Positions 43,002 to 61,120 of a DNA stretch of 64,000 nt are shown here, piece after piece (within the stretch, counting starts at the first letter, position 1; each line of letters starts with the position of its first letter). Where the stretch lies: IMG/VR virus record IMGVR_UViG_3300032092_000005, positions 88,321-152,320 of that record; one strand, written 5' to 3'. The notes beneath the pieces were generated by a model. The model was not told the origin of the DNA and did no database searches. It saw only the letters and a program-made list of their open reading frames with translations. The stretch comes from a virus. A program made the position numbers and the translations under genes.

Positions 43002-43062
43002 GTTGCTTTTTTGCAACAAAACCAAAAATAGTTGTTGACGGGACTGGCAAACCTGTTATTAT
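43002..43062 (+). promoter_or_regulatory. GTTG-N8-CAAC box plus sigma70 promoter
   Basis: GTTGCTTTTTTGCAAC (43002-17), 17 nt, TTGACG-16 nt-TATTAT with an extended TG. Confidence 0.75.
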
Positions 43063-43096
43063 AGAGTCTTAGTGATTGAGATTTAAGGATAACAGT

Positions 43097-43669
43097 ATGA
43101 ACCACATAGAACATCCAGACGCATATGCTGCCGCTACCAAGCGCAACATCATCATGAATGCCCGCACGACATTCTTCCGCACAGTTGCCGATGCACCTCA
43201 GATTATTGAGTACTTGGATCGTCAACCCGACCGTAACCAATTTGCGCAAAGCCTGCGTATGGCTCTTGACAACTATGGCAAGTTGACAGAAAAACAATGC
43301 CAAGCGGTTCGTAACTCTATGGAGCGTGAGGTACAGTGGAAGGCTGAGTACTTAGCTAAAGCCACCGCTGCTGCTGCAAGCCAAAAATTCGTTGGCGAAG
43401 TCGGCAAAAAGGTAACCCTTACTGTTACAGTTAAAAAAGAAATTATGGTTGACCGCCCGAAGTTTCATTACTACGATAGCGGTACATCCAACATTCGCCT
43501 TTGCCAGGATCAAGATGGCAATGTCATTGTATTCTCGGGCAATGCAGCCTTCCCACTTGAAGGCGAGACGGCTACCATCACTGCCACAGTAAAGTCTCAC
43601 CGCGTATACAGCCGCAACGGTGTAGACACTCCTCAAACTACGATAATTCGTCCCAAAATTGTTGCTTAA
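43097..43669 (+). CDS. Hypothetical early protein, possible C-terminal OB-fold
   Basis: Start ATG 43097 with AAGGA; beta-rich C-terminus (FVGEVGKKVTLTVTV...TITATVK). Confidence 0.65.
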   Translation: MNHIEHPDAYAAATKRNIIMNARTTFFRTVADAPQIIEYLDRQPDRNQFAQSLRMALDNYGKLTEKQCQAVRNSMEREVQWKAEYLAKATAAAASQKFVGEVGKKVTLTVTVKKEIMVDRPKFHYYDSGTSNIRLCQDQDGNVIVFSGNAAFPLEGETATITATVKSHRVYSRNGVDTPQTTIIRPKIVA

Positions 43670-43712
43670 AAACAACAATTCGGTTGCTTTTTTCTGGATG
43701 CTGGTGTATAAT
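43661..43712 (+). promoter_or_regulatory. GTTG-N8-CAAC box plus sigma70 promoter
   Basis: GTTGCTTAAAAACAAC (43661-76), 7 nt, TTGCTT-17 nt-TATAAT. Confidence 0.75.
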
Positions 43713-43740
43713 AAATACATAAATTCGAAAGACTGCCCTA

Positions 43741-45930
43741 ATGCTTGATACCAATATCTCCCGTTCCAATCTAGCTAAACTGTTAGCTACTGAGGACATT
43801 ACCGTATCTTATAAGAAGGTTGAAACGGCTTCGTTCAACCTTGTTACCCGCGAACTCATTCTCCCAATTTGGAATGACGTTACTCCTGAGATTTATGACC
43901 TGCTAGTTGGTCATGAAGTTGGTCACGCACTGGATACTCCTAGAGCATATCTGGATGCTGCTAATGCTGGTGGACGTAATTTTGCTACATTCCTGAACGT
44001 GATTGAGGATGCACGGATCGAACGTAAAATCAAAGTGCGCTACCCTGGACTGCGCAAGCCTATGGCTATTGCGTACCGTCAATTCATTGACCGCGATTTC
44101 TTCCAGATCAAAGGCAAGGACGTTTCTAAGCTCCTGCTAATTGACAGAATCAACCTACACTTCAAAGTCGGCGCATTTTCTGGCGTTAACTTCTCAGACA
44201 CCGAATTACCTTTTGTTAAGGAAATTGAAGCCGCTGAACGATTTGAACAGGTTAAAGATATCGCTACTCGCCTCTATTCATATTGCGAGGAAGAGTTAAA
44301 GCAAAAGCAGGAAGAGGCTGAGGATCGCCGTGCTAAACAACAGGAAGCTGGTGACGATTCTAATGGCGATTTTGGTTCCGACGATCAAATGGATGATCAA
44401 GATGATGACCAAGAAGAATCTCCTGTAGAAGATGGTGATTATTCCAATGAAGATGGTGACGATGGTGATTTTGATGAGGAAGATGCACCTGCTCCTTCTG
44501 GATGGTCGGCTGGCAAAATGGATGAAACCGATGAAACCATTGAAGACTACAAGGACGAGGTCAAGTCTCTGACTTCCGAAGCTTTGGAAAACAATCTGAA
44601 AGGCCTTGCTGAAACAAAAAACATTCAAGTCGGCAAATTGCCTTCTACAACAGACTTTGACCTGAAAGAAATTATCATTCCGTTCAAGGAACTTTCGTTT
44701 TTTGATCCAACATTTTACACTTCCGAATCGTATATGGCTGGTGCATTGAACGAATTCGAAACCAAAAACAAAAATGCTATTTCGTATTTGGTTAAAGAAT
44801 TTGAAATGAAAAAGAAGGCAGCCGAGTTGCGCCGTGTTACTGTAGCAGATTCTGGTACACTGAACACCAACAAGTTGCATTCTTACAAATTCAATGACGA
44901 TATCTTCCGTAAGATTGGTTCTATTGCTGCTGGTAAGAATCACGGCATTGTTCTGTTTGTTGACTGGTCTGGCTCTATGCAAGACAACATGCAAGGTACC
45001 ATTGAGCAATTGCTTACATTGACTACCTTCTGCCGTAAAGTTAATATTCCGTTTGATGTATATGCATTCACTACCGGCTTTGTTAAGAAATCTCTGATTG
45101 ATCGCCTGAAGAATGATGGTGATGAAAATACGTTGGAACTTAATGCTTTTGGGTTGATGAACATTCTTTCTAGCAACATGAAAAACCAAACTTACAAAAA
45201 GTTTGCTAATGACTTGTTGAATTTTGCCTCTGCTATGGCGAACCTATATTTAAAAGATGGTCGCCGTAATTACGCTAGAAACTACATTACGGATGATCAT
45301 GGTCTTGGCGGCACTCCTTTGAATGCAACTATCATGGTTGCAAGCGAGGTTGTTAATGCTTTCCGTGTTAAAAATAAGTGCGAGATTGTGAATGTAGTTT
45401 TTCTGACTGACGGTGAGGACAACTCTAACATCTGGACTAATGGTGATAGAAATTCTCCATACGGATACGCTACTAGAAAGATGATCGGTGCGGGCGACAA
45501 AGGCAATGTAAGCTATGTTGAGGATAAAGTTTCTCGCAAAACATATCGTGTTGGCTATAGAGGCATTACACCAACTTTGCTTAATGTATTGAAGGACAAT
45601 ACACAATGCAATTTGATTGGCTTCTACATTATCGCTAAGAAAAAAACTCATTTCGATAATGCTGGTGTGCGCCTCGGTGTAAAAAACTTGGTCGATGGAT
45701 ACACATCATTCAAGGCTGACAAATTTTTCAGCATTACTGATTATGGATATGATGAATACTTTTTGATTCCTGGCGGTTCTGACTTGTCGACCGATGATGA
45801 TTCTCTGGAAGATATCGTTGGCAAGGAAGCAGTAACTACCCGTAAACTGCGTGGTGCATTCCTCCAGATGAACCAAAACCGCTTGCTGAACCGGGTTTTA
45901 CTGTCAAAAGTGATCAAAAAGCTTGCTTAA
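43741..45930 (+). CDS. Metallopeptidase-like domain + acidic linker + vWA protein (CobT-like partner of the AAA ATPase)
   Basis: HEVGH zincin motif, NVIEDARIE, D/E-rich linker, MIDAS DWSGS, GTP, LTDGE. Confidence 0.85.
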   Translation: MLDTNISRSNLAKLLATEDITVSYKKVETASFNLVTRELILPIWNDVTPEIYDLLVGHEVGHALDTPRAYLDAANAGGRNFATFLNVIEDARIERKIKVRYPGLRKPMAIAYRQFIDRDFFQIKGKDVSKLLLIDRINLHFKVGAFSGVNFSDTELPFVKEIEAAERFEQVKDIATRLYSYCEEELKQKQEEAEDRRAKQQEAGDDSNGDFGSDDQMDDQDDDQEESPVEDGDYSNEDGDDGDFDEEDAPAPSGWSAGKMDETDETIEDYKDEVKSLTSEALENNLKGLAETKNIQVGKLPSTTDFDLKEIIIPFKELSFFDPTFYTSESYMAGALNEFETKNKNAISYLVKEFEMKKKAAELRRVTVADSGTLNTNKLHSYKFNDDIFRKIGSIAAGKNHGIVLFVDWSGSMQDNMQGTIEQLLTLTTFCRKVNIPFDVYAFTTGFVKKSLIDRLKNDGDENTLELNAFGLMNILSSNMKNQTYKKFANDLLNFASAMANLYLKDGRRNYARNYITDDHGLGGTPLNATIMVASEVVNAFRVKNKCEIVNVVFLTDGEDNSNIWTNGDRNSPYGYATRKMIGAGDKGNVSYVEDKVSRKTYRVGYRGITPTLLNVLKDNTQCNLIGFYIIAKKKTHFDNAGVRLGVKNLVDGYTSFKADKFFSITDYGYDEYFLIPGGSDLSTDDDSLEDIVGKEAVTTRKLRGAFLQMNQNRLLNRVLLSKVIKKLA

Positions 45931-45932
45931 AT

Positions 45933-45994
45933 GTTGTAAAAAAGCAACGGTTTGCAAAATAACCGTTGACTCTCCGCAAGAACCATGGTATAAT
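45933..45994 (+). promoter_or_regulatory. GTTG-N8-CAAC box plus sigma70 promoter
   Basis: GTTGTAAAAAAGCAAC (45933-48), 17 nt, TTGACT-17 nt-TATAAT with an extended TG. Confidence 0.8.
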
Positions 45995-46027
45995 AGAGTT
46001 TAGATTGATTGATTTACAAGGTTTATT

Positions 46028-47248
46028 ATGATTACCACTCAAGAAAAAATTGCGTTTATTACCGAAGCTTCCAAACGCTACGGCGCTACAGTTACCCGCC
46101 AACAATTGCGGGACATGATGGCAGAAGGCATCATCAAGCGCCAAATCTGGTTTGAATGCAATAAATACAGGTGTGGTCGTGCCGAGTATGCACTACCCTT
46201 TGAGGAATTCTCCCTCACCCCTCCTTCTGGTATCGTTTCCAATGCGCCCATTGAAACGGTAGAAAATGTAGTACCTATGGCTAAAAAAACAGAATCGGCT
46301 CCAGTAGTAGCCAAAGCGCCAACCCGCATTTCGTCCGTTCAACGGATGCAAGAGGGAGCTATCATTCCTAAAGTGAATGACTTGTATGTGCCGTTCGGCT
46401 TTTTCGATAACATGAAACGGATCGTAGGCTCACGCCGTTTCTATCCTGTGTTTGTTTCTGGTCTGTCTGGTAACGGCAAGACTTTCATGGTAGAACAAGC
46501 CTGTGCGCAACTCAAGGTAGAATGCCTCCGTGTGAATATCTCTCCTGAAACGGATGAGGATGACTTGATCGGCGGCTTCCGTTTGATTGACGGTGAGACA
46601 AAATGGTTTGACGGTCCTGTCGTGCAAGCTATGAAGTCTGGTGCAGTCCTGATTCTGGACGAAATTGACCGCGGCTCTAATAAGCTTATGTGTCTGCAAG
46701 GCGTTCTGGAAGGTAAAGGTCTTTTCGTTAAGAAGACTGGCGAATTCGTAGAGCCTGTGACTGGCTTCAACGTTATCGCTACTGCTAACACAAAGGGCAA
46801 GGGCGATGACAGCGGTCGGTACATGGCAGCTACAATCCTTGATGATGCGTTCCTAGAGCGTTTCCCTATCACGGTTGAGCAGGAATATCCTGACGTTAAA
46901 GTAGAGACTAAAATTCTCACCAAACTGTTCACTAGCCTCGGCATCAAGGATAAAGTATTCGCCGAAAATCTGGTGAAGTGGGCTGATATCATCCGTAAGA
47001 CTTTCGAGGAAGGTGCTATTGATGAATTGATTTCTACTCGCCGTTTGTCTCACATTGCCGAAGCTTACACTATCTTCAACAATAAGATGGAAGCCATTCG
47101 CTACTGTATCAACCGCTTTGATGCCGAGACTAAGACTTCATTCTTGGACTTGTACACCAAGATCGATGCTGAGACTAACATGCCAGCGCAGTCGGCACCT
47201 TCGACAGTGCCAACGCAGGCAGTAGAAGATGAAGAAATTCCTTTTTAA
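46028..47248 (+). CDS. cobS: CobS/MoxR-like AAA+ ATPase
   Basis: GLSGNGKT, DLIGG, LILDEID, ATANT, AFLERF; typical T4-like phage CobS. Confidence 0.9.
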   Translation: MITTQEKIAFITEASKRYGATVTRQQLRDMMAEGIIKRQIWFECNKYRCGRAEYALPFEEFSLTPPSGIVSNAPIETVENVVPMAKKTESAPVVAKAPTRISSVQRMQEGAIIPKVNDLYVPFGFFDNMKRIVGSRRFYPVFVSGLSGNGKTFMVEQACAQLKVECLRVNISPETDEDDLIGGFRLIDGETKWFDGPVVQAMKSGAVLILDEIDRGSNKLMCLQGVLEGKGLFVKKTGEFVEPVTGFNVIATANTKGKGDDSGRYMAATILDDAFLERFPITVEQEYPDVKVETKILTKLFTSLGIKDKVFAENLVKWADIIRKTFEEGAIDELISTRRLSHIAEAYTIFNNKMEAIRYCINRFDAETKTSFLDLYTKIDAETNMPAQSAPSTVPTQAVEDEEIPF

Positions 47249-47266
47249 TTAGCTGAATTATCTCAG

Positions 47267-47293
47267 AGGACCACTTGTAAGTGGTCCTTTTTT
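47267..47293 (+). terminator. Rho-independent terminator, overlapping a possible TTGTAA-17-TATAAT promoter (47275-47303)
   Basis: AGGACCAC-TTGTAA-GTGGTCCT followed by a T-tract. Confidence 0.8.
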
Positions 47294-47336
47294 CATATAT
47301 AATAGTGTATGATATTTTTTAACATGTGGAGAAATA

Positions 47337-48176
47337 ATGGAAATTGAACTGAATCTTGAACAACTAAGAGGTAAGAAAATCTTTTTGGCTACACCTATGT
47401 ACGGTGGACAATGTCATGGATCATATACCAAATCTATTGCAGACTTAATGGTAATCTGCACCCAACATGGAATTCAACTTAAGTTGTTTTACTTGTTTAA
47501 CGAATCCCTAATTACTCGCGCACGAAACTATCTTGCCGATGAATTTTTGCGGAGTGATTTTGATCATTTGGTTTTTGTTGATAGCGATATCCAATTTGAA
47601 CCTTATGACATTCTTGTTATGCATCACTACGCAATTAACAATCCTAATATGGGCGTTGTTTGCGGTCCATATCCAAAGAAAGCAATTTCTTGGGAGAAGA
47701 TCAAGATGGCAGTCGATAAAGGATATGCTGACAGAGACCCACAAGTCCTAGAAGACTTTGTTGGTGACTTTGTATTCAATGCAATTGACGGTATTGAAAA
47801 ATTCAGCGTAGAAGAACCAGTACAAGTAAAAGAAGGCGGCACTGGATTCATGCTTATCAAGCGTGAAGTATTCACAAACTTTGATGCAATGTGGCCTGAA
47901 CGTTCGTACAAACCAGACCACGCACGTACTGTTAACTTTGATGGCAGTCGTGAGATTATGGCATACTTTGATTGTGTCATTGATCCAGAATCTAAGCGTT
48001 ACCTGTCTGAGGACTATATGTTCTGCCAGTATGCTAGAAAATCTGGCTCAGAAGTATGGATGCTACCGTGGCTCAAACTGAAACACGCAGGCACATTTAT
48101 CTTTGGCGGTTCACTTGCAGCTATGGCAGCAATCGGTGCGTCAGCAACAGCAGATAGAAACTCACCAAAACGATAA
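47337..48176 (+). CDS. GT-A fold glycosyltransferase-like protein
   Basis: ATPMYGG, NESLITRARN, DxD in FVDSDI, GTGFMLI, YLSEDY. Confidence 0.7.
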   Translation: MEIELNLEQLRGKKIFLATPMYGGQCHGSYTKSIADLMVICTQHGIQLKLFYLFNESLITRARNYLADEFLRSDFDHLVFVDSDIQFEPYDILVMHHYAINNPNMGVVCGPYPKKAISWEKIKMAVDKGYADRDPQVLEDFVGDFVFNAIDGIEKFSVEEPVQVKEGGTGFMLIKREVFTNFDAMWPERSYKPDHARTVNFDGSREIMAYFDCVIDPESKRYLSEDYMFCQYARKSGSEVWMLPWLKLKHAGTFIFGGSLAAMAAIGASATADRNSPKR

Positions 48177-48181
48177 TCAAA

Positions 48182-48463
48182 ATGGCACCAGATTATAAAT
48201 TTGGTGAAGATGTGATCCTTCAAGAACTGAAGGATTACATTGATGCTACCTACAATCTACACTATGCAAGAACCAAATTTCAAGCTACAGAGTTTATTAT
48301 CGACTCTGGACATGGAGAAGGCTTTGCGCTAGGCAATATTATGAAGTACACACAGAGGTATGGTAAGAAGAATGGCAAGAACAAAGCAGACTTGCTAAAG
48401 ATTCTCCACTATGCTATAATGGCTATGCATGTACACAAAACAAATGAAGAAGGAAAATTATGA
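48182..48463 (+). CDS. DUF3310/SaV-like small protein
   Basis: HY...GFALGNIMKY..RYGKK....DLLK..HY. Confidence 0.75.
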   Translation: MAPDYKFGEDVILQELKDYIDATYNLHYARTKFQATEFIIDSGHGEGFALGNIMKYTQRYGKKNGKNKADLLKILHYAIMAMHVHKTNEEGKL

Positions 48464-49131
48464 AACTCAGTGAAGCTACAATAAATGTTCTAAAGAACTT
48501 TTCAACAATCAATACAGGACTTGTATTCAAACAAGGCAATGTATTGCGCACAATCTCTAAAGGACAAACTGTTCTCGCTAAGGCAACTATTCCAGACAGC
48601 TTTGATCATGAATTCACTATCTATGACTTGAATCGGTTCTTGTCTTTGATCGGTACTCTTGACTTACCTGAACTAGCTTTCAAAGAAGGCGAAAAGACTA
48701 TCAAGGTTGTATCTGGTAAATCTAAGACTACTTATGGGTTGTCTGACGAATCTATGGTTGTTGCACCTCCAGCTAAAGATATCAAGATTGAAAATCCAGA
48801 AGTGAGTTTCATTTTGACTAAAGATGACCTTGCTCAGGTATTACAAATGGCTGGTATATTGGGCCTTCCTAATATTGCATTGCGAGGTGATCGAAACAAA
48901 ATGACCCTTGTTGCATTAGATGTAAAGAATGTCGATTCAGACGTTTTCTCGGTTGAAGTCGGCACTACTACAGCAGAATTCGAGGCATTGTTTGTTACTG
49001 AAAATTTAAAGATGGTTCCCGCGGACTATAATGTCACAATCTCTTTTAAGGGAATTTCACACCTCAAGCACACTACTGAACCAATAGAATACTGGTTAGT
49101 CCTTGAGCCAAAATCCAACCACGCAGAGTAA
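48460..49131 (+). CDS. gp45: Sliding clamp gp45
   Basis: MKLSxxTxxVLKNFSxIN, IYDLNRFL, ENLKM. Confidence 0.95.
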   Translation: MKLSEATINVLKNFSTINTGLVFKQGNVLRTISKGQTVLAKATIPDSFDHEFTIYDLNRFLSLIGTLDLPELAFKEGEKTIKVVSGKSKTTYGLSDESMVVAPPAKDIKIENPEVSFILTKDDLAQVLQMAGILGLPNIALRGDRNKMTLVALDVKNVDSDVFSVEVGTTTAEFEALFVTENLKMVPADYNVTISFKGISHLKHTTEPIEYWLVLEPKSNHAE

Positions 49132-49134
49132 CTC

Positions 49135-49524
49135 ATGGAGAAACTGTTAATTAAAGTACCAGTCTCTCTTGGAGAACTTGTCGATAAGATTACTATTCTT
49201 AGGATCAAACAGGCATGTATGACAGATGAAGAAAAACTGTCTAACGTAACGCATGAATATAATATGCTTGTTGCTATTCCAGAATACGTTGCAGTTAAAG
49301 ATACCATTGCATCACAAGAAGCGGAATTACATAAAGTTAATCAGCGCCTCTGGTATTATGAAGAAGATATCCGCGACTTTGATAAACTGGAAAGTCCAAA
49401 TATATTTGCACTCATGAGAGTTGCAAAGGGCATTCACACCACAAATGATGAACGTAGCCAAATCAAAAAAGAAATCAATATTATGTGTAACTCTGAACTA
49501 GTAGAGGAAAAATCCTATGAGTAA
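49135..49524 (+). CDS. DUF6165-like protein
   Basis: PVSLGELVDKITILRIK, LW..EE..R, ND.R..IK..IN, EEKSY. Confidence 0.75.
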   Translation: MEKLLIKVPVSLGELVDKITILRIKQACMTDEEKLSNVTHEYNMLVAIPEYVAVKDTIASQEAELHKVNQRLWYYEEDIRDFDKLESPNIFALMRVAKGIHTTNDERSQIKKEINIMCNSELVEEKSYE

Positions 49525-49786
49525 TGTTATCGTCCCATCTTCACCTGAAGACAGAAAGAAAATCAAAGATGCATTGATTGAAATTTCATCATCACTCACT
49601 CGCATGGAAGCAGAACGTGATTTGATCAAGGACATTCTTGCTGAAGTAGAAGATAAATTTGAGTTGCCTAAGAAGTATATTCGCAAGCTTGCTAAGATTT
49701 ATCATAAGCAAAACTACGCTGAGATTCGCCAAGAGCAAGATGACGTAGAGACTCTATACGAAACTGTGACTGGACCAGCAGCATGA
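49517..49786 (+). CDS. DsbA-like dsDNA-binding protein
   Basis: Helical 89-aa protein with K.IRKLAKIYHKQN...E.LY, as in T4-like DsbA homologues. Confidence 0.7.
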   Translation: MSNVIVPSSPEDRKKIKDALIEISSSLTRMEAERDLIKDILAEVEDKFELPKKYIRKLAKIYHKQNYAEIRQEQDDVETLYETVTGPAA

Positions 49787-50130
49787 CAGTAAATACTAAG
49801 CGAAGTTTTCTAAGAGGCGCAGGATTATTTGGACTCATTGCTGGTATTGGCAGTGCAGCAGCAGCGGAATCTTTGACTGCTTCATTACCAGAAGTAAAAG
49901 AAGATATTAGTCATCTAGCGCCGCCACAGAATGCTACTACTATTCAATTTACAGGCGCATATGGCAAACAGCCAGAGCCTCAACCCGTGAGTGCCACATG
50001 TGGCAATTCTTTTTACATTAACGGATTCAATCAAGAAACGACACACAAAGTATGTATGTCTGTTGGACTTGACAATCGCCTTTGGCTAAAAGTTGGTGAT
50101 GAATGGCGCCGTGTCGCATTGGAATCTTAA
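49783..50130 (+). CDS. Hypothetical exported protein with a Tat-like signal peptide
   Basis: TKRSFLR + hydrophobic stretch + AAAA-E cleavage site. Confidence 0.6.
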   Translation: MTVNTKRSFLRGAGLFGLIAGIGSAAAAESLTASLPEVKEDISHLAPPQNATTIQFTGAYGKQPEPQPVSATCGNSFYINGFNQETTHKVCMSVGLDNRLWLKVGDEWRRVALES

Positions 50131-50138
50131 CATTGTGT

Positions 50139-50182
50139 TTGCATTCTAACATCGCCTGTGTTACAATACGTAGGTGATGTTA
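50139..50182 (+). promoter_or_regulatory. sigma70-type promoter within an inverted repeat, upstream of gp44
   Basis: TTGCAT-17 nt-TACAAT; TAACATCGCCT...AGGTGATGTTA arms flank the -10. Confidence 0.55.
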
Positions 50183-50202
50183 CACTATTATTATGAGGTA
50201 TA

Positions 50203-51144
50203 TTGATGATTGAAGATTTCTTGTGGGTCGAGAAGTATCGCCCTAAGACTGTAGAAGAGACTATTCTTCCTGCTGATCTTAAAACTACATTCGCAAAATT
50301 CGTGTCAAATGGGAATATTCCTAATTTGATTCTGACTGGTGGTGCTGGCGTTGGTAAGACTACTATAGCTAGAGCAATGCTTGAAGAACTTGGGTGTTCT
50401 TATATCGTAATCAACGGATCGATGAACGGTAACATCGATACTCTGCGGAATGAAATTAAAAATTTCGCATCTACTATGTCATTTAAAGGCGGTCGTAAAT
50501 ATGTTATCCTGGATGAAGCAGACTATCTCAACCCTACTAGCACACAGCCAGCTTTGCGCAACTTCATGGAAGAGTTTTCTGCTAATTGTGGCTTTATCCT
50601 TACTTGCAACTTTCTTAATCGTATCATCCAGCCTCTACATTCCAGATGCTCAGTCATTCAATTTAAGATAAGCAATACAGATAAGCCAAAGCTTGCTGCA
50701 CAATTCTTTAAGCGTGTTAGTGGCATTCTACAAAAAGAAGGTATTGAGTTTGAGCCTCCTGTTGTTGCAGAAGTAATCAAGAAGCACTTCCCAGATTGGC
50801 GTAGGGTGTTGAATGAACTTCAACGCTATTCTGCTACAGGTAAGATTGACACTGGCATTCTATCTAATGTCATTGAGGTGTCTATCAAGAATCTTCTTGA
50901 TACTCTTAGGTCGAAAGACTTCTCTACAATGCGCAAGTGGGTTAATGAAAACAATGACAATGATTCATCGGTGATCTTCCGTAACCTGTTTGATAACATC
51001 CTAGAGTACATTGAGCCAGCATCCGTGCCTGTGTTCATTATGCTCCTGTCTGAGTATCAATACAAAGCTGCATTTGTTGCTAATCCTGAAATCAATATGG
51101 CTGCATTCTTGACAGAGGTCATGGCATCGTGTGAAATCAAATGA
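50203..51144 (+). CDS. gp44: Clamp loader large subunit gp44
   Basis: WVEKYRP, GGAGVGKTT, ILDEAD, SRC motif. Confidence 0.96.
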   Translation: MMIEDFLWVEKYRPKTVEETILPADLKTTFAKFVSNGNIPNLILTGGAGVGKTTIARAMLEELGCSYIVINGSMNGNIDTLRNEIKNFASTMSFKGGRKYVILDEADYLNPTSTQPALRNFMEEFSANCGFILTCNFLNRIIQPLHSRCSVIQFKISNTDKPKLAAQFFKRVSGILQKEGIEFEPPVVAEVIKKHFPDWRRVLNELQRYSATGKIDTGILSNVIEVSIKNLLDTLRSKDFSTMRKWVNENNDNDSSVIFRNLFDNILEYIEPASVPVFIMLLSEYQYKAAFVANPEINMAAFLTEVMASCEIK

Positions 51145-52449: not shown

Positions 52450-52450
52450 A

Positions 52451-52885
52451 ATGGAAGAACTAATTCAAGCACTCAAAGTAAATTTGGCAACACACTTTTC
52501 ATTTTACTTAAAGACGCAATACTACCACTGGAATGTCACTGGTCCAAATTTCTTTCAATATCACACAATGCTACAAGGCATCTATGAAGAAGTTTATGGT
52601 GTAGTGGACCAACTTGCAGAAGAGATTCGCGCATTAGATGCATATGCTCCAGGTAGCTTCAAAAGATATGGCGAATTATCTCTGATTAAAGATGATGAAA
52701 CAGTTCCTCCAGCTGAGGCAATGTTCAGTAATTTGCTTTACGATATTGTGTTAGTCCAAAACAATATCAAAGCCGTTTATGATCTAGCAGAGCAAAACGG
52801 ACTGCACAATCTTTCCAATCTTATGGCAGAACGCCAAGATGCGTTTCGAAAACACGCATGGTTTCTAAAAGCAACGTTGAAGTGA
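52451..52885 (+). CDS. dps: Dps / ferritin-like protein
   Basis: HWNVTGPNFFQYH, D.LAEEIR ferroxidase motifs, KHAW.L. Confidence 0.92.
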   Translation: MEELIQALKVNLATHFSFYLKTQYYHWNVTGPNFFQYHTMLQGIYEEVYGVVDQLAEEIRALDAYAPGSFKRYGELSLIKDDETVPPAEAMFSNLLYDIVLVQNNIKAVYDLAEQNGLHNLSNLMAERQDAFRKHAWFLKATLK

Positions 52886-52886
52886 C

Positions 52887-52915
52887 TTGACAAACGTTGA
52901 AAAATATGAGATAAT
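52887..52915 (+). promoter_or_regulatory. sigma70-type promoter
   Basis: TTGACA-17 nt-GATAAT with an extended TG. Confidence 0.75.
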
Positions 52916-52979: not shown

Positions 52980-53207
52980 ATGGCATTTGTAAAATCAAAC
53001 AAAACTCAGGCAGAACTCTTGATATCGTATTTGCGCGGCAAGGGCCGTGGCATTACTGCACCTCAAGCTAACGCATTGTTCGGCGTAAAGAATCTACGCG
53101 CACGTATGAGCGACCTCCGCATGGAAGGCTTCAAGGTTCGCACTTCTCTAAACACAGAAGGACGTACAAAATATTACGTATCACGCCGTAAAATCGGTCA
53201 AGCCTGA
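52980..53207 (+). CDS. Small winged helix-turn-helix DNA-binding protein
   Basis: TQ..L...L....GIT..QA..LFGVKNLRARMSDLR.EG..V pattern. Confidence 0.75.
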   Translation: MAFVKSNKTQAELLISYLRGKGRGITAPQANALFGVKNLRARMSDLRMEGFKVRTSLNTEGRTKYYVSRRKIGQA

Positions 53208-53215: not shown

Positions 53216-53220
53216 ATAAT

Positions 53221-53420: not shown

Positions 53421-53915
53421 ATGACAGACTTTAAAATCGGTAAAATCTCATTTGGTCCAGCATTCAAAGACTTTGATAAATATTTCGTAGGCTTTGAAGA
53501 TCAACTGAACCACATGCAAAAGCTTCACGCTGATGTAACAAAACACATTCCCGGATATCCTCCATACAACATCAAGAAGACTGGTGATAATACATACAGT
53601 ATTGAACTTGCGGTTGCTGGATTCGCACAAAGCGAAATTGATATCGAAATTGATGATGGTAAACTTATCGTCAAAGGCAATGTAGCTTCAAAAGAAAATG
53701 AAAAAGAAGAAGACTTCTTATTCAAAGGTATTGCTAATCGTGGGTTCACTCGCGCATTCGCTATCGCTGATCAATTTGAAGTTAAAGACGCAGAGCTATT
53801 CAATGGTATGCTAAAGATCGTTTTAGATCGTTTGGTGCCAGAAGAAAAGAAGCCAAAAAAAGTGCCAGTAAAGACTAAAGGCAGCAAGCAATATTTGACG
53901 GAAGAAGATTTATGA
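53421..53915 (+). CDS. hsp20: Small heat shock protein (IbpA/Hsp20)
   Basis: YPPYNI, IELAVAGF, KGIANRGF.R.F, A.L.NGML. Confidence 0.95.
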   Translation: MTDFKIGKISFGPAFKDFDKYFVGFEDQLNHMQKLHADVTKHIPGYPPYNIKKTGDNTYSIELAVAGFAQSEIDIEIDDGKLIVKGNVASKENEKEEDFLFKGIANRGFTRAFAIADQFEVKDAELFNGMLKIVLDRLVPEEKKPKKVPVKTKGSKQYLTEEDL

Positions 53916-54082
53916 TAACTACTATCTTAAATTCACTTTCAAATGTCGTATCATTTATTTTACGTGACAGAACTCAGACATTAGAGCAATACATCATTGC
54001 AAATAATCCTCAGGACGCCGCAGAAGTAGAATATTTAGAACGCCAATACAGTATGCGTAATTCACTAGGAAGACTTATCTAA
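53912..54082 (+). CDS. Small hypothetical protein (56 aa)
   Basis: MITTILNS...LEQYIIANNPQDAAEVEYLERQY; ATGA coupling to hsp20; followed by a terminator. Confidence 0.6.
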   Translation: MITTILNSLSNVVSFILRDRTQTLEQYIIANNPQDAAEVEYLERQYSMRNSLGRLI

Positions 54083-54099
54083 TAGTGAACAACACACAA

Positions 54100-54123
54100 G
54101 GGTGCCACTCGGCACCCATTTTT
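54100..54123 (+). terminator. Rho-independent terminator
   Basis: GGGTGCC-ACTC-GGCACCC followed by ATTTTT. Confidence 0.8.
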
Positions 54124-54139
54124 ATTATAGGATTATAAA

Positions 54140-54439
54140 ATGAGCGAACTTAGAATTTTAAAATTGATTTCTGGTGAAGAAATTGTCGGTGATATTTTAT
54201 CAGACACCGCAGATGGTGTACTAATTCAAGACCCATGCAGTTTAGGACTTATGCAAAGTCCAACAGGCCCAAGACTAAACATGATGCCGATGTTAATTTT
54301 CTCTGAACAGAAAAAGGTACAACTTCAAAAATCACACATCATCTACATAGTTACGGTTGCACAAGAGATACAAAACAAGTATAATGAGATATACGGTTCA
54401 GGAATCATCCTGCCAAAACCATCGGCAATTATTAAATAA
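54140..54439 (+). CDS. Hypothetical protein (Sm-like fold candidate)
   Basis: ILKLISGEEIVG; conserved slot before gp43. Confidence 0.75.
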   Translation: MSELRILKLISGEEIVGDILSDTADGVLIQDPCSLGLMQSPTGPRLNMMPMLIFSEQKKVQLQKSHIIYIVTVAQEIQNKYNEIYGSGIILPKPSAIIK

Positions 54440-56937
54440 TGAAATTTTATACAAACTTTAGCAAGTACGGCAACACAATCCTCGTCCGAGGTTACGACAA
54501 CGGACGTAGGTTTGCAGAAAGATTGAACTACAATCCTACGCTATACTTGCCATCGCGTGAAGCAACCAAATTCACTACACTAGATGGCTCATATGTTGCT
54601 CCTGTAAAGCAGGGTACAATGAGTGACGCAATGGAGTTTGTTAAAAAATATGATAGTGTCGATAACTTTTCTATCTATGGATCAACTAACTTTCAATACG
54701 TATGCATTGATGAAGAATATCCAGGTAAGCTTGACTATGATCGGTCGTTGATCAGAGTTGCAAACATTGACATTGAGGTTGGCTCAGAGAATGGATTTCC
54801 TGAGCCTGCTAGTGCTAGTGAAGTAATCACTGCAATTACTTTCAAGATTGATGACCACTATCATGTGTTCGGTTGTGAATTCTTTATGCATGAACGCAAA
54901 GATGTTACTTACTACGAATGTAACAATGAAGTTGCATTGATCATGAAGTTTCTTGAGCTATGGGAAATCACTTCACCTGATATTGTGACTGGTTGGAATG
55001 TCCAGTTCTTTGATATTCCATATCTTATCAATCGGATCAATCGACTTCTTGGTGAAGAAACTGCAAAGCGCCTGTCTCCTTGGAAGCGTATCAGTACTCG
55101 CAACGCAATAATCATGAACCGTGAGGAGATTGAGTATGAACTTGTTGGAATTACGGTGCTTGACTACCTTAAGCTATACAAGAAGTTTACTTACTCACAA
55201 CAAGAAAGCTTTAGACTAGATCACATCGCATTCATTGAACTCGGTGAACGCAAGCTCGACTATTCTGAGGTAGAGAATCTACACCAACTGTACAAGACAA
55301 ACTTTCAAAAGTTTATTGAGTACAACATTCATGACGTTGAACTTGTTGACAGAATTGACAATAAGATGCAATTGATTGACATGGCACTTGCACTTGCATA
55401 TGACGCTAAGGTGAACTACGGTGACGTATTCACGCAGGTGCGCATGTGGGACACATTGATTCACAATGAACTGCTAGAGCGTGGCATTGTTGTGCCGCAG
55501 AACGTTAGCACTCCAAAGAATGCGCAGTATGCTGGTGGTTATGTTAAAGATCCAATTGTTGGCAAGCATGAATGGGTTGTGTCATTTGACTTGAACAGTC
55601 TGTACCCGCACTTGATCATGCAGTATAATATTTCTCCTGAGACACTGGTGCAAGGCAAGCATGTTTCTATTACAGTTGATAATTTACTGAACAGCAAATA
55701 TGACATTGAAGATGAATATTGCATGGCAGCAAACGGACACTTCTTTAAGCGTGACAAGCAAGGCTTCTTGCCTGCAATGATGGAACGCATGTACAATGAC
55801 CGATCAATGTACAAAAAGAAAATGATTCAATCTCAGAAAGACTATGAAGCAGCAACTACTCCTGAAGCAAAGCGCAAAGAGAGCTATCAGATTTCGAAAT
55901 ACAAGAATCTCCAGTTAGCTAAGAAGGTTCAATTGAACTCAGCTTACGGTGCATTAGGCAATGAGTACTTTCGATTCTTTGACATTCGCCAAGCAGAAGC
56001 TATTACTCTATCTGGTCAGTTAGCTATTCGTTGGATTGAAAATGAAATGAATGGATACCTGAACAAACTTCTAAGCACAGAAAACGTTGACTATGTTATT
56101 GCATCCGATACTGATTCGATCTATGTACACCTTGGTCCTCTTGTGCAAAAGGTGTACGGTGCTGATGGCAAAGTTTCTATTCCAAAAGAAAAGATTGTAG
56201 AGTTTATCGACAAGGTGTGTGAGCAAAAGCTTCAACCGTTTATTGATAAGTCATACCAAAAGCTTGCTGATAACATGAATGCATTTGATCAAAAGATGCA
56301 GATGAAACGTGAATCGATTGCAGACACTGGAATCTGGACTGCAAAGAAGCGATACATCCTGAACGTATGGGATAATGAAGGTGTTCGCTATGCAAAGCCT
56401 AAGCTTAAGATGATGGGTATCGAAGCAGTGAAGTCTTCTACACCAGCATCATGCCGTGATAAGATTAAAGAAGCACTTGAGTTGATCATAACTGGTACCG
56501 AAAAAGAGTTTCAAGCATTCAATGCAAAATTCAAAGAAGAGTTTAAGACACTGCCATTTGAATCGGTTGCGTTTCCTAGAGGCGTAAGTGAGTTGACTAA
56601 ATATAGTGATAACGTGTCGCTATACGGCAAAGGTACTCCTATTCATGTTCGTGGTTCTCTAGTGTATAACAACCTATTGAAGAAGCATAAGCTTGAGAAG
56701 AGATATCAGCCTATCAAAGATGGCGACAAAGTTAAATTTTGCTATATGAAAGTTCCAAACCCAACACAAGAAAATGTCCTGTCCGTAGTGAACATGTTGC
56801 CAAAAGAAATGCAGCTTGAGAAGTATATTGATTATGATCTGCAATTCGATAAAGCTTACATTGATCCTATGAAAAGCATTGTGACTACGTTCGGATGGAA
56901 TACGGAACATAAATCAAACTTACTAGGATTTTTCTAA
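54439..56937 (+). CDS. gp43: Family B DNA polymerase gp43
   Basis: DIEV exonuclease motif, SFDLNSLYPH, KVQLNSAYG, ASDTDS, KKRY; no intein apparent. Confidence 0.98.
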   Translation: MKFYTNFSKYGNTILVRGYDNGRRFAERLNYNPTLYLPSREATKFTTLDGSYVAPVKQGTMSDAMEFVKKYDSVDNFSIYGSTNFQYVCIDEEYPGKLDYDRSLIRVANIDIEVGSENGFPEPASASEVITAITFKIDDHYHVFGCEFFMHERKDVTYYECNNEVALIMKFLELWEITSPDIVTGWNVQFFDIPYLINRINRLLGEETAKRLSPWKRISTRNAIIMNREEIEYELVGITVLDYLKLYKKFTYSQQESFRLDHIAFIELGERKLDYSEVENLHQLYKTNFQKFIEYNIHDVELVDRIDNKMQLIDMALALAYDAKVNYGDVFTQVRMWDTLIHNELLERGIVVPQNVSTPKNAQYAGGYVKDPIVGKHEWVVSFDLNSLYPHLIMQYNISPETLVQGKHVSITVDNLLNSKYDIEDEYCMAANGHFFKRDKQGFLPAMMERMYNDRSMYKKKMIQSQKDYEAATTPEAKRKESYQISKYKNLQLAKKVQLNSAYGALGNEYFRFFDIRQAEAITLSGQLAIRWIENEMNGYLNKLLSTENVDYVIASDTDSIYVHLGPLVQKVYGADGKVSIPKEKIVEFIDKVCEQKLQPFIDKSYQKLADNMNAFDQKMQMKRESIADTGIWTAKKRYILNVWDNEGVRYAKPKLKMMGIEAVKSSTPASCRDKIKEALELIITGTEKEFQAFNAKFKEEFKTLPFESVAFPRGVSELTKYSDNVSLYGKGTPIHVRGSLVYNNLLKKHKLEKRYQPIKDGDKVKFCYMKVPNPTQENVLSVVNMLPKEMQLEKYIDYDLQFDKAYIDPMKSIVTTFGWNTEHKSNLLGFF

Positions 56938-57338
56938 TGTCAAACATACCACAAGAGTATCTAACAATTCGCCATGAAGAAGATTTTGGATTTAGCGCAG
57001 TAGATGAAATTGAACTCAAGCAGGTCACCGACACAAACACGCTAGAGACAAAGGTCATTCGTGAAACTGTATCGTCATCAAGCGAAGCAGTCACTCGCCT
57101 TGAAGAGAAGGTCGATTCTATTCTACAGCTATACAAAGATGGCAAGCTAGGGCTAGAAGCCGAACGCACAGAGTTATTAGCTACAACTTCAGGCAAGCTA
57201 AAAGAGCTAGAGCAAATTATTATGCCTTTGCTTATCAATCTAATGAAGACGCCAGACAAAGAATACATTTACTGGCCCAATCGTAAAGATAAAATTCAAG
57301 AGCAGATCGACAAGATTCTAGCTATCACTAGGGCGTAA
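56937..57338 (+). CDS. Hypothetical protein
   Basis: 133 aa with DFGFSAV and YIYWPNR motifs. Confidence 0.75.
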   Translation: MSNIPQEYLTIRHEEDFGFSAVDEIELKQVTDTNTLETKVIRETVSSSSEAVTRLEEKVDSILQLYKDGKLGLEAERTELLATTSGKLKELEQIIMPLLINLMKTPDKEYIYWPNRKDKIQEQIDKILAITRA

Positions 57339-57339
57339 T

Positions 57340-58206
57340 ATGGGATTCGTTCTTCTATTATTTTTCAATGCATTGCTATTGTCTAGTATCGCAGCGTACT
57401 ATTCAATCGCAGGCTTGATTGCTATATTCTCAGCAGCACCTCTATCCATCGCAATGATGGGCGGTTCACTAGAGCTTGCTAAACTTGTAACAGTTAGTTG
57501 GCTCTATAGAAACTGGAATGATGCGCCTAGAATAATGAAATACTACTTCACCGTAGCAGTAGTCGTTTTGATGTTCATCACTTCATTAGGTATCTTTGGA
57601 TTCTTATCTAAAGCACACACTGAACAAGGAAGCGCAAACTCAAATATTACTGCACAGATTGAAATGATTGATGATAAGATAAGAGTTGAAAAGGAAATTA
57701 TTGATGATAATCGCAAAGCACTCAAACAACTTGATGAATCTGTGGACCAAACTATGGGTCGCACAAAAGATGAAAAGGGTGCCACTCAAGCATCTCAATT
57801 ACGCAAAGCCCAACAAAAAGAGCGTACTAGAATATCTTCGGATATTTCAGAAGCACGAAAGAAAATTGCAGAGTATAATGTGGAGAGATTTCCACTGGAA
57901 ACCGAAACCCGAAAGCTTGACGCCGAAGTTGGTCCAATCAAGTACATTGCAGCCTTGGTGTATAGCGAAAGCGAAAGCGAAGATGATAAAGCATCAATCG
58001 AAAGGGCTGTTCGATTTATAATCATACTGCTAGTTTCCGTTTTTGATCCGATGGCAGTCTTGCTAATCATTGCAGCTAACTACAATCTGAATCTTTTGGC
58101 ACGTAAGAGGGAGTATTTACAAACGGCAACTATCGATCCTATTCCAATGGAAAAGAAAGAAGTTGATGCACATAGGATGTACCATAGGGATCAAGACTCT
58201 ATGTAA
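57340..58206 (+). CDS. Membrane protein with a coiled coil
   Basis: Three N-terminal TM segments, a central coiled coil, EVGPIKYIA, and a fourth TM ending VFDP. Confidence 0.75.
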   Translation: MGFVLLLFFNALLLSSIAAYYSIAGLIAIFSAAPLSIAMMGGSLELAKLVTVSWLYRNWNDAPRIMKYYFTVAVVVLMFITSLGIFGFLSKAHTEQGSANSNITAQIEMIDDKIRVEKEIIDDNRKALKQLDESVDQTMGRTKDEKGATQASQLRKAQQKERTRISSDISEARKKIAEYNVERFPLETETRKLDAEVGPIKYIAALVYSESESEDDKASIERAVRFIIILLVSVFDPMAVLLIIAANYNLNLLARKREYLQTATIDPIPMEKKEVDAHRMYHRDQDSM

Positions 58207-58208
58207 AT

Positions 58209-58237
58209 TTGACAGGATAGGTTATTAATGATATAAT
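58209..58237 (+). promoter_or_regulatory. Consensus sigma70 promoter (uvsX operon)
   Basis: TTGACA-17 nt-TATAAT with an extended TG. Confidence 0.88.
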
Positions 58238-58271
58238 GTGTTTAGCGCATTTTTTATAAAGGTGAATAATA

Positions 58272-59345
58272 ATGGGTAATTTTTTTACAGACTTAGTTGA
58301 TCAGTTGAAAGATGAAGATACGAAAATTCTTGCTGATGGTGATGCGTCAGCAGAATTTAGTGGAAGCATTGACACTGGATCATACGCATTGAACGCACTG
58401 CTATCTGGCAGTATCTATGGTGGCGTTCCCAACAACAAAGTGACAGCATTCGCAGGTGAATCTTCAACAGGTAAAACGTTTTTTGTCTTGGGTGTTGTTA
58501 AGCAATTCTTAGATGACAATCCAGATGCTGGCGTAATTTACTTTGATTCCGAAGCAGCAGTCACAAAACACATGATGGAATCTAGAGGCGTAGATACGAA
58601 GCGGGTTGTTATCTCTGAGCCAGATACAATTCAGAAGTTCCGTCATACTGCACTCCAGATCATTGAGAAGTACGCAGCACAAAAAGAATCAGCACGTAAG
58701 CCTATGATGATGGTTCTAGATTCTCTTGGTCAGCTATCATCTACAAAAGAGATGGAAGACACCTCAGAAGGTAAAGAGACTAGGGACATGACAAAGAGCC
58801 AAACTCTTAAAGCTACATTCCGCGTATTGAATTTAAAGCTTGCTAAGATTGGTGTTCCTTTGCTTGTAACGAACCACGTTTATGATGTTGTCGGTGCATA
58901 CTTCCCAACTAAAGAAATGTCTGGTGGTTCTGGCTTGAAGTACACAGCATCCACAATCGTGTATCTGTCTAAGAAGAAAGACAAAGATGGCACAGATATT
59001 GTTGGTAACATTGTAAAAGCAAAGCTACAGAAAAGCAGACTAACAAAAGAAAATTCGTTTGTTGAAATTAAGATCACCTACAGCAAGGGCTTAGATCGCT
59101 ACTACGGACTGCTAGAAATTGCAGAGAAGTATGGCATCATTAAAAAAGTCTCTACTCGCTATGAGCTATCTAATGGCGTAAAGGTCTTCGGAAAGAATAT
59201 CAATGAAGAACCTGAAAAGTATTACACTAAAGAAATTCTAGACCAAATCGATGAAGCTTGCAAGAAAGAGTTCTTGTACGGACAAGATGTTATTGGCGGC
59301 GCAAGAGTTGATGAGGACGAAGCGGAGTTAGAACATGCTAATTGA
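58272..59345 (+). CDS. uvsX: RecA-like recombinase UvsX
   Basis: [29 protein letters not shown]. Confidence 0.96.
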
Positions 59346-59676
59346 TATCGACTATGCAGTTACTCAAGAGGATATCAAGTACAAAGACAAAGATGTTGTT
59401 GCAGCTATCGAAATTCTAAAAGGCGATTTTGCAAGTGTTAAGTTTTACTTCGGTGAGTTAAACTTTGCCGAAGAAGAGAATCCAGATGGTACCTTTTCAA
59501 TCAGCTTCAACTATGATATAATAGGTGAAGAGAACGAATGGCTTAGAGGAAAAGAAGAGTTCGAAGTGGTACTTGGTCGCATTTTAAACGACCTGCTAAG
59601 ACATTCCTTAGACATGGCACAACAGAGGTATGATAATGAGTCTGGAAAAGAAAATACTGAAACACATCCTGAATGA
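59335..59676 (+). CDS. Hypothetical protein at the gp40 position
   Basis: Acidic 113-aa ORF between uvsX and gp41, the slot of T4 gp40. Confidence 0.6.
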
Positions 59677-61054
59677 TGATGGATATGTACGTAAAACATT
59701 ACCTTTTATAAAGTCAGAATATTTCACAGAAGCTTCCGAAAAGATTGTATTCAATCACGCATTTGACTACTACACAAAGTATAACGCACTGCCTACAGTT
59801 GAAGCACTTATCATTGAGATAGATGCTAAGAAGAACATTTCGGAAGATCAATACAAAAAAGTCCTTTCGCTAATTACAGAGATAAATTCTGAGGAGTATT
59901 CTCCTCAGGATACTGATTGGTTAGTTGACCAGACAGAGAAGTTTTGCCAAGACAAAGCTATCTACAATGCTATCATGCAAAGCATTACGATTCTGGATGA
60001 GCATGAAACTTCTAAGCTAGACAAAGGCGCTATCCCAGGCATTCTATCGGATGCTTTGGGTGTGTCGTTTGACAATCACGTTGGTCACGATTTCATTGAA
60101 GACGCAGAATCTCGCTATGAGTTCTATCATAGAGTTGAAGAGCGTATTCCATTTGACCTCGACTATCTAAATCGAATCACAAAGAACGGTCTTCCTAAAA
60201 AGACGCTGAACATTATTCTTGCAGGCACTGGTGTCGGTAAGAGTTTGTTTATGTGCCATTGTGCAGCAGCTAATCTTACACTTGGTAAGAACGTCCTATA
60301 CATTACACTTGAAATGGCAGAGGAACGAATTGCTGAACGTATTGACGCTAACCTATTGAACGTTGACCTAGATAAACTTGTTGCGTTGCCTAAAGATAGT
60401 TATCTGAAAAAGATTGCAAGGATGAAAGAGAAGGCACTTGGTCGATTGATCATCAAAGAATATCCTACAGCATCGGCTAGTGCAACACACTTCAAACACT
60501 TACTCAGTGAATTGAAACTCAAGCGCAAGTTTATACCTGATATTATCTATATTGATTATCTAAATATATGTTCTTCTTCTAGAGTTAAATCTGGTAATAA
60601 TGTAAACTCATATACTCTTGTTAAATCTATTGCAGAAGAATTACGTGGACTTGCAGTTGAATTTAATGTGCCTATTATGTCAGCTACACAAACTACTCGC
60701 GGTGGTTATGATAACTCTGACGTAGGTATTACTGATACGTCAGAATCATTTGGTCTGCCAGCTACAGCAGACTTTATGGTTGCATTAATATCTACAGAAG
60801 AGTTGGCAGAAATGAATCAGATTATGGTAAAGCAATTAAAGAATAGATATTCTAATCCTGATACTAATAAGAGATTCGTTATTGGCGTAGATAAAGCTAA
60901 GATGAAACTATATGATTCCGAAGATAATGCGCAGAATAATATCTCAGATAGTGGACAAATTCACGACAATAAAGATACTGAACCAGTATTCGATAAAAGC
61001 GCATTTGGTAAACGAATGACTGCACAAAGAGATTTCAGCAGAGTTAAAGTTTAA
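59636..61054 (+). CDS. gp41: Replicative helicase gp41 (DnaB-like)
   Basis: AGTGVGKS, TLEMAEE, IDYL, ATQTTR, SESFGLPATAD, KNRY. Confidence 0.96.
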   Translation: MSLEKKILKHILNDDGYVRKTLPFIKSEYFTEASEKIVFNHAFDYYTKYNALPTVEALIIEIDAKKNISEDQYKKVLSLITEINSEEYSPQDTDWLVDQTEKFCQDKAIYNAIMQSITILDEHETSKLDKGAIPGILSDALGVSFDNHVGHDFIEDAESRYEFYHRVEERIPFDLDYLNRITKNGLPKKTLNIILAGTGVGKSLFMCHCAAANLTLGKNVLYITLEMAEERIAERIDANLLNVDLDKLVALPKDSYLKKIARMKEKALGRLIIKEYPTASASATHFKHLLSELKLKRKFIPDIIYIDYLNICSSSRVKSGNNVNSYTLVKSIAEELRGLAVEFNVPIMSATQTTRGGYDNSDVGITDTSESFGLPATADFMVALISTEELAEMNQIMVKQLKNRYSNPDTNKRFVIGVDKAKMKLYDSEDNAQNNISDSGQIHDNKDTEPVFDKSAFGKRMTAQRDFSRVKV

Positions 61055-61058
61055 TTTT

Positions 61059-61120
61059 GTTGTTTTTTCGCAACAGCTATGAAAATACCTGTTGCTTTTT
61101 TTGGTGAAGCATGTTATAAT
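61059..61120 (+). promoter_or_regulatory. GTTG-N8-CAAC box plus sigma70 promoter
   Basis: GTTGTTTTTTCGCAAC (61059-74), 17 nt, TTGCTT-17 nt-TATAAT with an extended TG. Confidence 0.78.

Follow-up and report, generated by a model that had tools for sequence, protein, structure and literature searches.

The stretch of DNA analysed here raises the question of what reads a short palindrome that recurs in front of sigma70-type promoters in a T4-like phage. The stretch (the window; 64,000 nt) comprises bases 88321-152320 of one 152,320-bp virus contig, IMG/VR record IMGVR_UViG_3300032092_000005, with a G+C content of 38% and an estimated completeness of 85%. It carries four copies of a 16-bp dyad, GTTG-N8-CAAC. 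A first-pass annotation of the window had noticed these copies and interpreted them as operators that define a distinct promoter class, a candidate phage regulon read by a dimeric factor. What it observed is confirmed, and what it concluded is partly supported. We propose, with moderate confidence, that the dyad is the site of a host regulator that has been copied onto phage early-promoter cassettes of the promoter-early stem-loop (PeSL) type; that a protein binds, which factor it is, in which direction it acts and which host the phage infects are inferred from the DNA.

Exact copies of GTTG-N8-CAAC occur in the window at 43002, 43661, 45933 and 61059 and nowhere else. All four dyads of the first-pass annotation were thus found where it had placed them, and the gaps to the -35 element measure 17, 7, 17 and 17 nt, as it had reported. 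Its remark that the -35 region can itself be a half-site copy also stands, since GTTGCTTTTTT recurs at 43683 and 61091. Within the window alone the excess is marginal (4 found versus 1.29 expected; 5 of 100 shuffles reach 4). Genome-wide it is decisive, with 14 exact dyads versus 1.65 +/- 1.35 in shuffles (maximum 7 in 200 shuffles). A location upstream of a sigma70 promoter, claimed for every dyad, holds for the four in the window and for 14 of 14 in the genome, all of which are intergenic. The genome-wide motif scan that had been suggested as a check therefore shows copies that are promoter-linked throughout and not at background frequency. By comparison, dyads with one mismatch have no promoter linkage, the sole exception being a tandem copy at genome position 45949. 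The four cassettes of the window are as follows.

43002..43017, + strand: dyad 1, GTTGCTTTTTTGCAAC; begins 9 nt past the stop codon of an upstream open reading frame (ORF) of 55 aa

43018..43096, + strand: remainder of cassette 1; A-rich tract ending in AAAATAGTTG at 43018-43034; promoter with -35 TTGACG (43035-43040), spacer of 16 bp and -10 TATTAT (43057-43062); leader AGAGTCTTAG... with Shine-Dalgarno AAGGA; then ATG 43097 of a 190-aa protein of unassigned function (phrog_27218)

43661..43676, + strand: dyad 2, GTTGCTTAAAAACAAC; overlaps the TAA stop of the upstream gene and forms, with its flanks, an 8-bp palindrome

43677..43740, + strand: remainder of cassette 2; gap of 7 nt, -35 TTGCTT (43684-43689), spacer of 17 bp, -10 TATAAT (43707-43712)

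ATG 43741, + strand: gene after cassette 2, encoding a 729-aa peptidase (phrog_459)

45933..45948, + strand: dyad 3, GTTGTAAAAAAGCAAC; begins 2 nt past the stop codon of the peptidase gene

45949..46027, + strand: remainder of cassette 3; gap of 17 nt, -35 TTGACT (45966-45971), spacer of 17 bp, -10 TATAAT (45989-45994); leader AGAGTTTAGA..., then ATG 46028 of a CobS-like protein (AAA_5 and CbbQ_C domains)

61059..61074, + strand: dyad 4, GTTGTTTTTTCGCAAC; begins 4 nt past the stop codon of a gp41-like helicase gene

61075..61149, + strand: remainder of cassette 4; gap of 17 nt with AAAATAC, -35 TTGCTT (61092-61097), spacer of 17 bp, -10 TATAAT (61115-61120) with TGt before it; then ATG 61150 of a 100-aa protein of unassigned function

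Most of the dyads (10 of 14) lie within 24.9-46 kb of the genome, where they precede a tRNA array and ORFs of 26-249 aa that are mostly without known function. The other four, those of the window, stand before non-core genes, as had been stated: the phrog_27218 protein, the phrog_459 peptidase, the CobS-like AAA_5 protein and the 100-aa protein. The gap from dyad to -35 is 16-18 nt in 11 of 14 copies, 7 nt in one and 26 nt in one; the remaining copy is the distal partner of a tandem pair, the proximal partner of which has one mismatch and a gap of 17 nt.

Alignment of the 14 sites revealed a conserved unit of about 95 nt in which the dyad is the first block. It is followed by a variable 5-7 nt, AAAATAGTTG, TTGACA, a 16-bp spacer ending in cTGt, TATTAT or TATAAT, and, at the 3' end, a leader of the form AGAG(T/C)CTTAGA...AAAGGA that leads into the ATG. 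The boxed promoters have a spacer of mostly 16 bp, an AAAATAG tract and a common leader, whereas strong unboxed promoters, found before uvsY, uvsX, the gene of a winged-helix protein (wHTH) and several genes at 11-64 kb, have a 17-bp spacer and unrelated leaders. Because the two groups differ in spacer, tract and leader, the box marks a distinct promoter family, and in this respect the proposal of a separate class of sigma70 promoters holds. Box-less promoters had been listed for four genes; three of these were found, with the gene identities confirmed, before uvsY (33557), the wHTH gene (52887) and uvsX (58209), but no strong sigma70 promoter was found for gp44. Another unboxed promoter, at window positions 47275-47310 (TTGTAA, 17 bp, TATAAT), stands before a 279-aa gene; here promoter and terminator overlap, the promoter being enclosed by a G/C hairpin with a T-run (GAGGACCAC...GTGGTCC followed by six T).

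The boxed class was compared with the middle promoters of T4, which have a TGCTT MotA box at about -30 and occur together with a MotA gene. Two boxed promoters have TTGCTT at -35, but with an ordinary 17-bp spacer (versus 12 +/- 1 bp from the -10 for a MotA box). The MotA_activ family gave no match in the phage, although control genomes gave no signal either. To our knowledge, no means of sorting sigma70 promoters into classes has been described for T4-like phages that lack MotA and AsiA (cyanophages, pelagiphages and the present clade); this clade offers a promoter class that is defined by its sequence and is directly testable.

Related phages were then compared. Relatives were collected by a pattern scan of viral contigs (100 stretches) and by searching for homologues of the CobS-like protein (80 loci, 62-95% identical), and also include parts of five long related contigs, for a total of 1.7 Mb of DNA. 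There are 430 exact dyads in this DNA, 373 of them with TTGAC within 45 nt on exactly one side; most of the A/T-core dyads outside the 373 are likewise upstream of a promoter. The consensus of 223 distinct copies, oriented by their promoters, is T-GTTG-(C/T)-A-n-A-A-A-A-(A/G)-CAAC-A, which gives a full motif of 18 bases, TGTTG(C/T)-A/T-rich-(A/G)CAACA (18-mer form TGTTGCAAAAAAACAACA). While the arms GTTG and CAAC are fixed by the search pattern, the counts in the flanks are independent of it, with T at -1 in 170/223 copies and A at +1 in 216/223. Loop, spacer to the -35 and upstream DNA vary among these copies; the arms and the flanking T and A are kept. When cassettes were located by the promoter core alone, 58/61 had an exact dyad; of the 14 cassettes outside the original seed pattern, 11 had one. 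Upstream of the dyad the DNA is unrelated from site to site: some sites follow coding sequence, others a G/C-rich hairpin that has a T-run.

The junction between the peptidase and CobS genes allows one promoter to be followed across relatives. At 75% or more CobS identity (>=75%) the dyad is kept, with gaps of 14-17 nt and once 4 nt, and a relative at 65% still has it, 2 nt from the -35. Relatives at 62-74% are without the dyad, and their promoter lies inside the end of the upstream gene. The dyad is therefore a module that can be gained or lost at a given promoter. A relative with 89% identity has a counterpart of cassette 2 (L102:1636-1700) in which a 7-bp G/C-rich inverted repeat, CCGCTGG...CCAGCGG, surrounds the TTGCTT -35 element; this repeat is not present in the window. 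A full cassette of dyad, AAAATAGTTG, TTGACA, TATACT and AGAGTCT was also seen on a 3.5-kb contig (L244; CAZLXA010000039.1) from a bin labelled Candidatus Saccharibacteria. This is probably a mis-binned contig of the present phage clade and not Saccharibacteria DNA. Among cultured phages, no shared cassette was found in phage records, and in cyanophage Syn9 the dyad is at control level only, with no excess.

The same composite of dyad and promoter occurs in bacteria. One genome per prokaryote species was scanned for TGTTGYWNWWNWRCAACA followed by 12-19 nt and TTGACA. Nitrosomonas together with Gallionella, Sideroxydans, Ferrigenium and other Gallionellaceae prevail among the matches listed, with gaps of 16-18 nt, and an even sample of the order gave 12 matches in 10/201 genomes versus 0 for the reversed control. 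Orthologues were gathered without reference to the dyad, which removes ascertainment bias. For the fatty acyl-AMP ligase promoters of Nitrosomonadaceae, 9/10 keep both arms at a gap of 17 nt while the inner 8 nt vary, and homology among these promoter regions starts exactly at the dyad. Of 24 Gallionellaceae haem-porin-like genes (~420 aa), 6 have the exact dyad at a gap of 16-17 nt and 5 more have it with one mismatch. A signal peptide and a single CXXCH motif are present in the encoded protein, one homologue of which also gave a weak match to porins; the protein presumably resembles Cyc2. Our literature search on cyc2 promoter regulation found nothing relevant.

In Methylophilaceae the element is strongly enriched. 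The A/T-core 18-mer is present in 34/41 of their genomes, with 86 matches versus 2 for the control (2.1 versus 0.05 per genome), compared with 28 matches versus 9 in 121 genomes of the whole class, and the Methylophilaceae list contains 10/14 of the phage 16-mers letter for letter. Among the ORFs on either side of 30 Methylophilaceae sites are 8 of the OmpA/beta-barrel type, 8 porins (Porin_O_P, Porin_4, Porin_5), 2 with a TonB-receptor Plug domain and 1 MlaA, and further sites in Nitrosomonas, Gallionella and Methylophilaceae genomes adjoin OmpA, Porin_4 and Plug genes. No regulator gene was found adjoining the bacterial sites. The idea that the bacterial matches are rRNA promoters was rejected, as no Rfam family was present in 8 host loci.

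Three further features of the bacterial loci were noted. A strongly conserved non-coding leader of about 200 nt separates the dyad promoter from the fatty acyl-AMP ligase gene in Nitrosomonadaceae (L234:2478-2730 and orthologues L315-L324); it has no Rfam match and may therefore be an uncatalogued leader or small RNA. In one family of Methylophilaceae OmpA-type promoters the dyad is about 35-38 nt from the -35, and the OmpA-type promoters L376, L377, L383 and L388 have, beside the full dyad, a AAAAACAACA-like half-site about 6 nt from the -35, which suggests an arrangement of full site plus half-site. Finally, a single dyad in a betaproteobacterial genome (G197:C2:295-352) has TTGAC on both sides at 14-15 nt, and may be shared by two divergent promoters; that genome also holds a third composite of dyad and promoter.

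Because bacteria carry the same site before their outer-membrane protein genes, a regulator of the host has probably been co-opted by the phage, and the site also points to the host. From the motif, the host is likely a betaproteobacterium of the Methylophilaceae / Nitrosomonadaceae / Gallionellaceae group. A G+C content of 38% in the phage is compatible with this, compared with 37.6% for Melnitz, a cultured T4-like phage, and 34.4% for its Methylophilales host. Under the mechanism that we propose, each dyad would head, as its upstream block, a PeSL-type early-promoter cassette about 95 nt long. The dyad, TGTTG(C/T)-W6-(A/G)CAACA, would be a putative duplex-DNA site recognised by a dimeric regulator of host origin, whose own targets would be outer-membrane protein genes of the betaproteobacterial group and whose operator the phage would have copied onto its early cassettes. 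The factor would bind at about -60, next to the upstream side of the A-tract, a possible seat of the alpha C-terminal domain (alphaCTD) of RNA polymerase, and would govern the output of the boxed family, most likely by activation and from the entry of the DNA into the cell. The repeated cassettes may additionally serve as homology patches for the gain and loss of small early genes.

Three other explanations were considered. The dyad could be a nucleic-acid hairpin, as in classical PeSLs, that acts as a weak terminator or attenuator or as a 3'-end stabiliser for the upstream gene. PeSL stem-loops do terminate transcription (PMC2839356), the dyads begin within a few nucleotides of the upstream stop codon, and folding energies of the four dyads in the window range from -5.3 to -7.6 kcal/mol (z-scores -1.5 to -3.2). 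The window copies are, however, among the better-paired members, and the commonest class, which has a C/A mismatch, folds at only -2.4 kcal/mol. At positions 5/12 of the 223 copies, C/A (95) and T/G (49; the reverse complement of C/A) prevail over T/A (55) and C/G (16), so that Watson-Crick pairs are fewer than the column frequencies predict. The arms are invariant, and hence there are no compensatory changes and no covariation; the stems are A/U-rich and of 4-5 bp, and beyond its ends the stem is extended no more than expected by chance. A U-run does not follow the dyad (215/223 copies have <=3 T in the next 8 nt), and a T5 run, taken as the tail of a separate terminator, lies within 12 nt upstream in 35/223 copies. 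The asymmetric centre occurs in both orientations (136 A-rich, 69 T-rich), and in bacteria the element is upstream of promoters and not at gene ends. Fixed arms, an asymmetric two-way centre and weak pairing argue for protein recognition of duplex DNA over a hairpin, which we regard as very unlikely. A Rho-independent terminator with a G/C-rich stem and U-run was rejected because of the stems, the energies, the mismatch statistics, the missing U-run and the separate upstream terminators. It is scarcely probable that the dyad lacks a function of its own, whether carried along in a recombining cassette or acting as a mere A-tract bend or distal UP element. The cassettes are indeed paralogous and recombining, the core is an A-tract, and the UP-like AAAATAG tract adjoins it. 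Yet relatives with a diverged spacer, leader and gap still have exact arms, one-mismatch copies are not promoter-linked, and bacterial orthologous promoters keep the arms while the A/T core varies. Moreover, the A-tract is at about -57 to -63, and canonical UP-element positions lie downstream of this.

A phage protein could also read the dyad and, as a temporal switch, shut off or boost the boxed promoters. One candidate, whose early promoter is unboxed, is the following.

52980..53207, + strand: wHTH, 75 aa (PF14090), conserved only in this phage clade

Relatives G001-G003 carry the wHTH (64-96% identity), and its putative recognition helix is invariant; a search of 50,697 phage records found it in none. 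The promoter of the wHTH gene has a -35 identical to the consensus TTGACA, and repression is commoner than activation at near-consensus promoters. The motif, on the other hand, is enriched and conserved in bacterial chromosomes in the absence of any phage context. A fold search with the wHTH gave nothing beyond generic winged-helix matches of the MarR/ArsR kind, none as strong as E = 0.05, and no dimerisation domain; its promoter has no conserved dyad, and co-occurrence in a single clade cannot discriminate among candidates. We therefore think that this alternative is unlikely. Both the wHTH and a host regulator had been named as candidate binders by the first-pass annotation. The bacterial genomes independently back the host regulator, while nothing links the clade-specific wHTH to the box. 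At the wHTH promoter (window 52868-52905), AACGTTGAA flanks the -35 on both sides, and its first copy holds CAACGTTG, i.e. the dyad arms everted. Autoregulation through this repeat was rejected: it is not conserved in G001-G003 and is thus probably due to chance.

The host-regulator reading has to be set against several observations that weigh against it. Concerted evolution of paralogous cassettes can mimic selection within one genome. The boxed promoters are already near consensus, so an activator may be needless. The host is predicted from the motif, and in Melnitz the dyad occurs only at control level; the DNA polymerase of Melnitz is not closer to that of our phage than are those of cyanophages (52% versus 53% identity). 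The spacing is also less regular than the window suggests. In Methylophilaceae the dyad is mostly about 35-110 nt from the apparent -35 and not 17 nt. Among the phages, the gap is 13 nt in cassettes of the 143-kb relative G001, 14 nt at the CobS promoter in relatives with about 78% CobS identity, 19 nt in other relatives and 2-9 nt in a few. At loci picked without reference to the dyad, gaps of 13 (8 copies), 14 (18), 16 (10), 17 (9) and 19 nt (6) were counted. The gaps of 16-18, 7 and 26 nt in the genome under study (G000) are compatible with one face of the helix. The proposed class-I phasing would hold inside this genome and in two host promoter families, but not for the relatives with their modal gaps of 13, 14 and 19 nt and the few of 2-9 nt. 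Rigid class-I contact is not a general rule, and the variable gaps fit it poorly.

If a host regulator does read the dyad, early phage expression may be coupled to a physiological signal of the host. For a widespread lake phage clade, the motif provides a culture-independent prediction of the host, Methylophilaceae or their neighbours. For the bacteria, it is a putative cis-element, not previously described, before the genes of major outer-membrane proteins in methylotrophs, ammonia oxidisers and iron oxidisers. A bolder hypothesis, which we consider rather unlikely but worth stating, is that these abundant, uncultured lake T4-like phages copied the operator of a master regulator of OmpA, porin, TonB-receptor and haem-porin genes and also titrate that regulator. 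In that case at least 14 sites per genome would recruit the factor for immediate-early transcription, and replicating phage DNA would draw it off the host porin and OmpA promoters, thereby remodelling the cell surface. Such a scheme would predict both the host of the phage and a new bacterial regulon.

How does the element compare with known systems? Among operators, the nearest are the Fnr-type boxes, TTG-N8-CAA, with FixK at TTGAT-N4-ATCAA and NnrR at TTG-N8-CAAA (PMC6256036, PMC5596199). The dyad contains TTG-N8-CAA and has the same even-length 5-N4-5 layout, e.g. TTGCA-AAAA-TGCAA in Gallionellaceae. It differs in that its half-sites are TTG(C/T)(A/T) and not TTGAT, its conserved flanks TG and CA are not part of an Fnr box, and its neighbours encode outer-membrane proteins instead of respiratory functions. 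Because the half-sites differ from TTGAT and the neighbour genes are not respiratory, the regulator may belong to this family or to another. The phage encodes no HTH_Crp_2 (Crp-type HTH) domain, and our literature search on GTTG-N8-CAAC found nothing apart from TTG-N8-CAA as an Fnr-type box. We know of no motif among those of Fis, IHF, LexA, TyrR, OmpR, LysR-type regulators, NifA, ParB and integron attC that fits an even-length TGT-N12-ACA with these arms; OmpR half-sites (GAAACA versus GCAACA) and TyrR boxes have some features in common with it.

In class I sigma70 promoters, CRP or FNR binds near -61.5 (or -71.5, -82.5) and contacts alphaCTD. The phage layout is alike in that a dyad of 16-18 bp, with its predicted centre at about -60, precedes an A-rich tract directly beside the -35, the outlier gaps of the genome (7 and 26 nt) are off by about one helical turn, and two host promoter families keep a gap of 16-17 nt. 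It is unlike class I in the other gaps of the related phages. Cyanomyovirus promoters carry NtcA boxes (GTA-N8-TAC), which are sites for a host factor. The parallel would be that a T4-like phage without MotA/AsiA-type control places the palindrome of a host regulator on its own promoters; motif, position and host group are different.

The closest relatives of the cassettes themselves are the PeSLs of the T4-type phages RB49/phi1, PST/T4 and nt-1/KVP40 (Arbiol et al. 2010, PMC2839356; Comeau et al. 2014, PMC4122927). The 14 cassettes, and 61 from relatives, share with these an intergenic position and the order of parts: the inverted repeat comes first, next the A/T-rich tract and the sigma70-type early promoter, then the Shine-Dalgarno sequence with the start codon. 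They are likewise present in many copies gathered among small non-core genes (hyperplastic regions), and indels between close relatives are bounded by cassettes. Two relatives, L070 and L036, have an additional unit inserted exactly at genome 28471-28555, and L074 is without the unit at 30683-30782; other breakpoints (31552-33062) are not at cassettes. A mini-ORF at genome 30681-30761 (L190:6681-6761) encodes 26 hydrophobic aa and lies between two cassettes, in a 180-bp unit that is absent from L074, which lacks the 26-aa mini-ORF along with the unit. What had been called a regulon is better described as a family of paralogous PeSL-type cassettes, a known kind of element. The stem-loops of PeSLs are stable, usually G/C-rich and proven transcription terminators, whereas the dyad described here is short and A/T-rich, of fixed sequence, folds weakly and lacks a U-run; a separate terminator often lies ahead of it, and bacterial promoters share it. 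The cassettes are treated as a PeSL variant because the layout and the cassette-bounded change match, but the defining terminator stem-loop is missing. In place of the classical PeSL terminator, the inverted repeat of these cassettes looks like an operator that is common to the chromosomes of one bacterial group.

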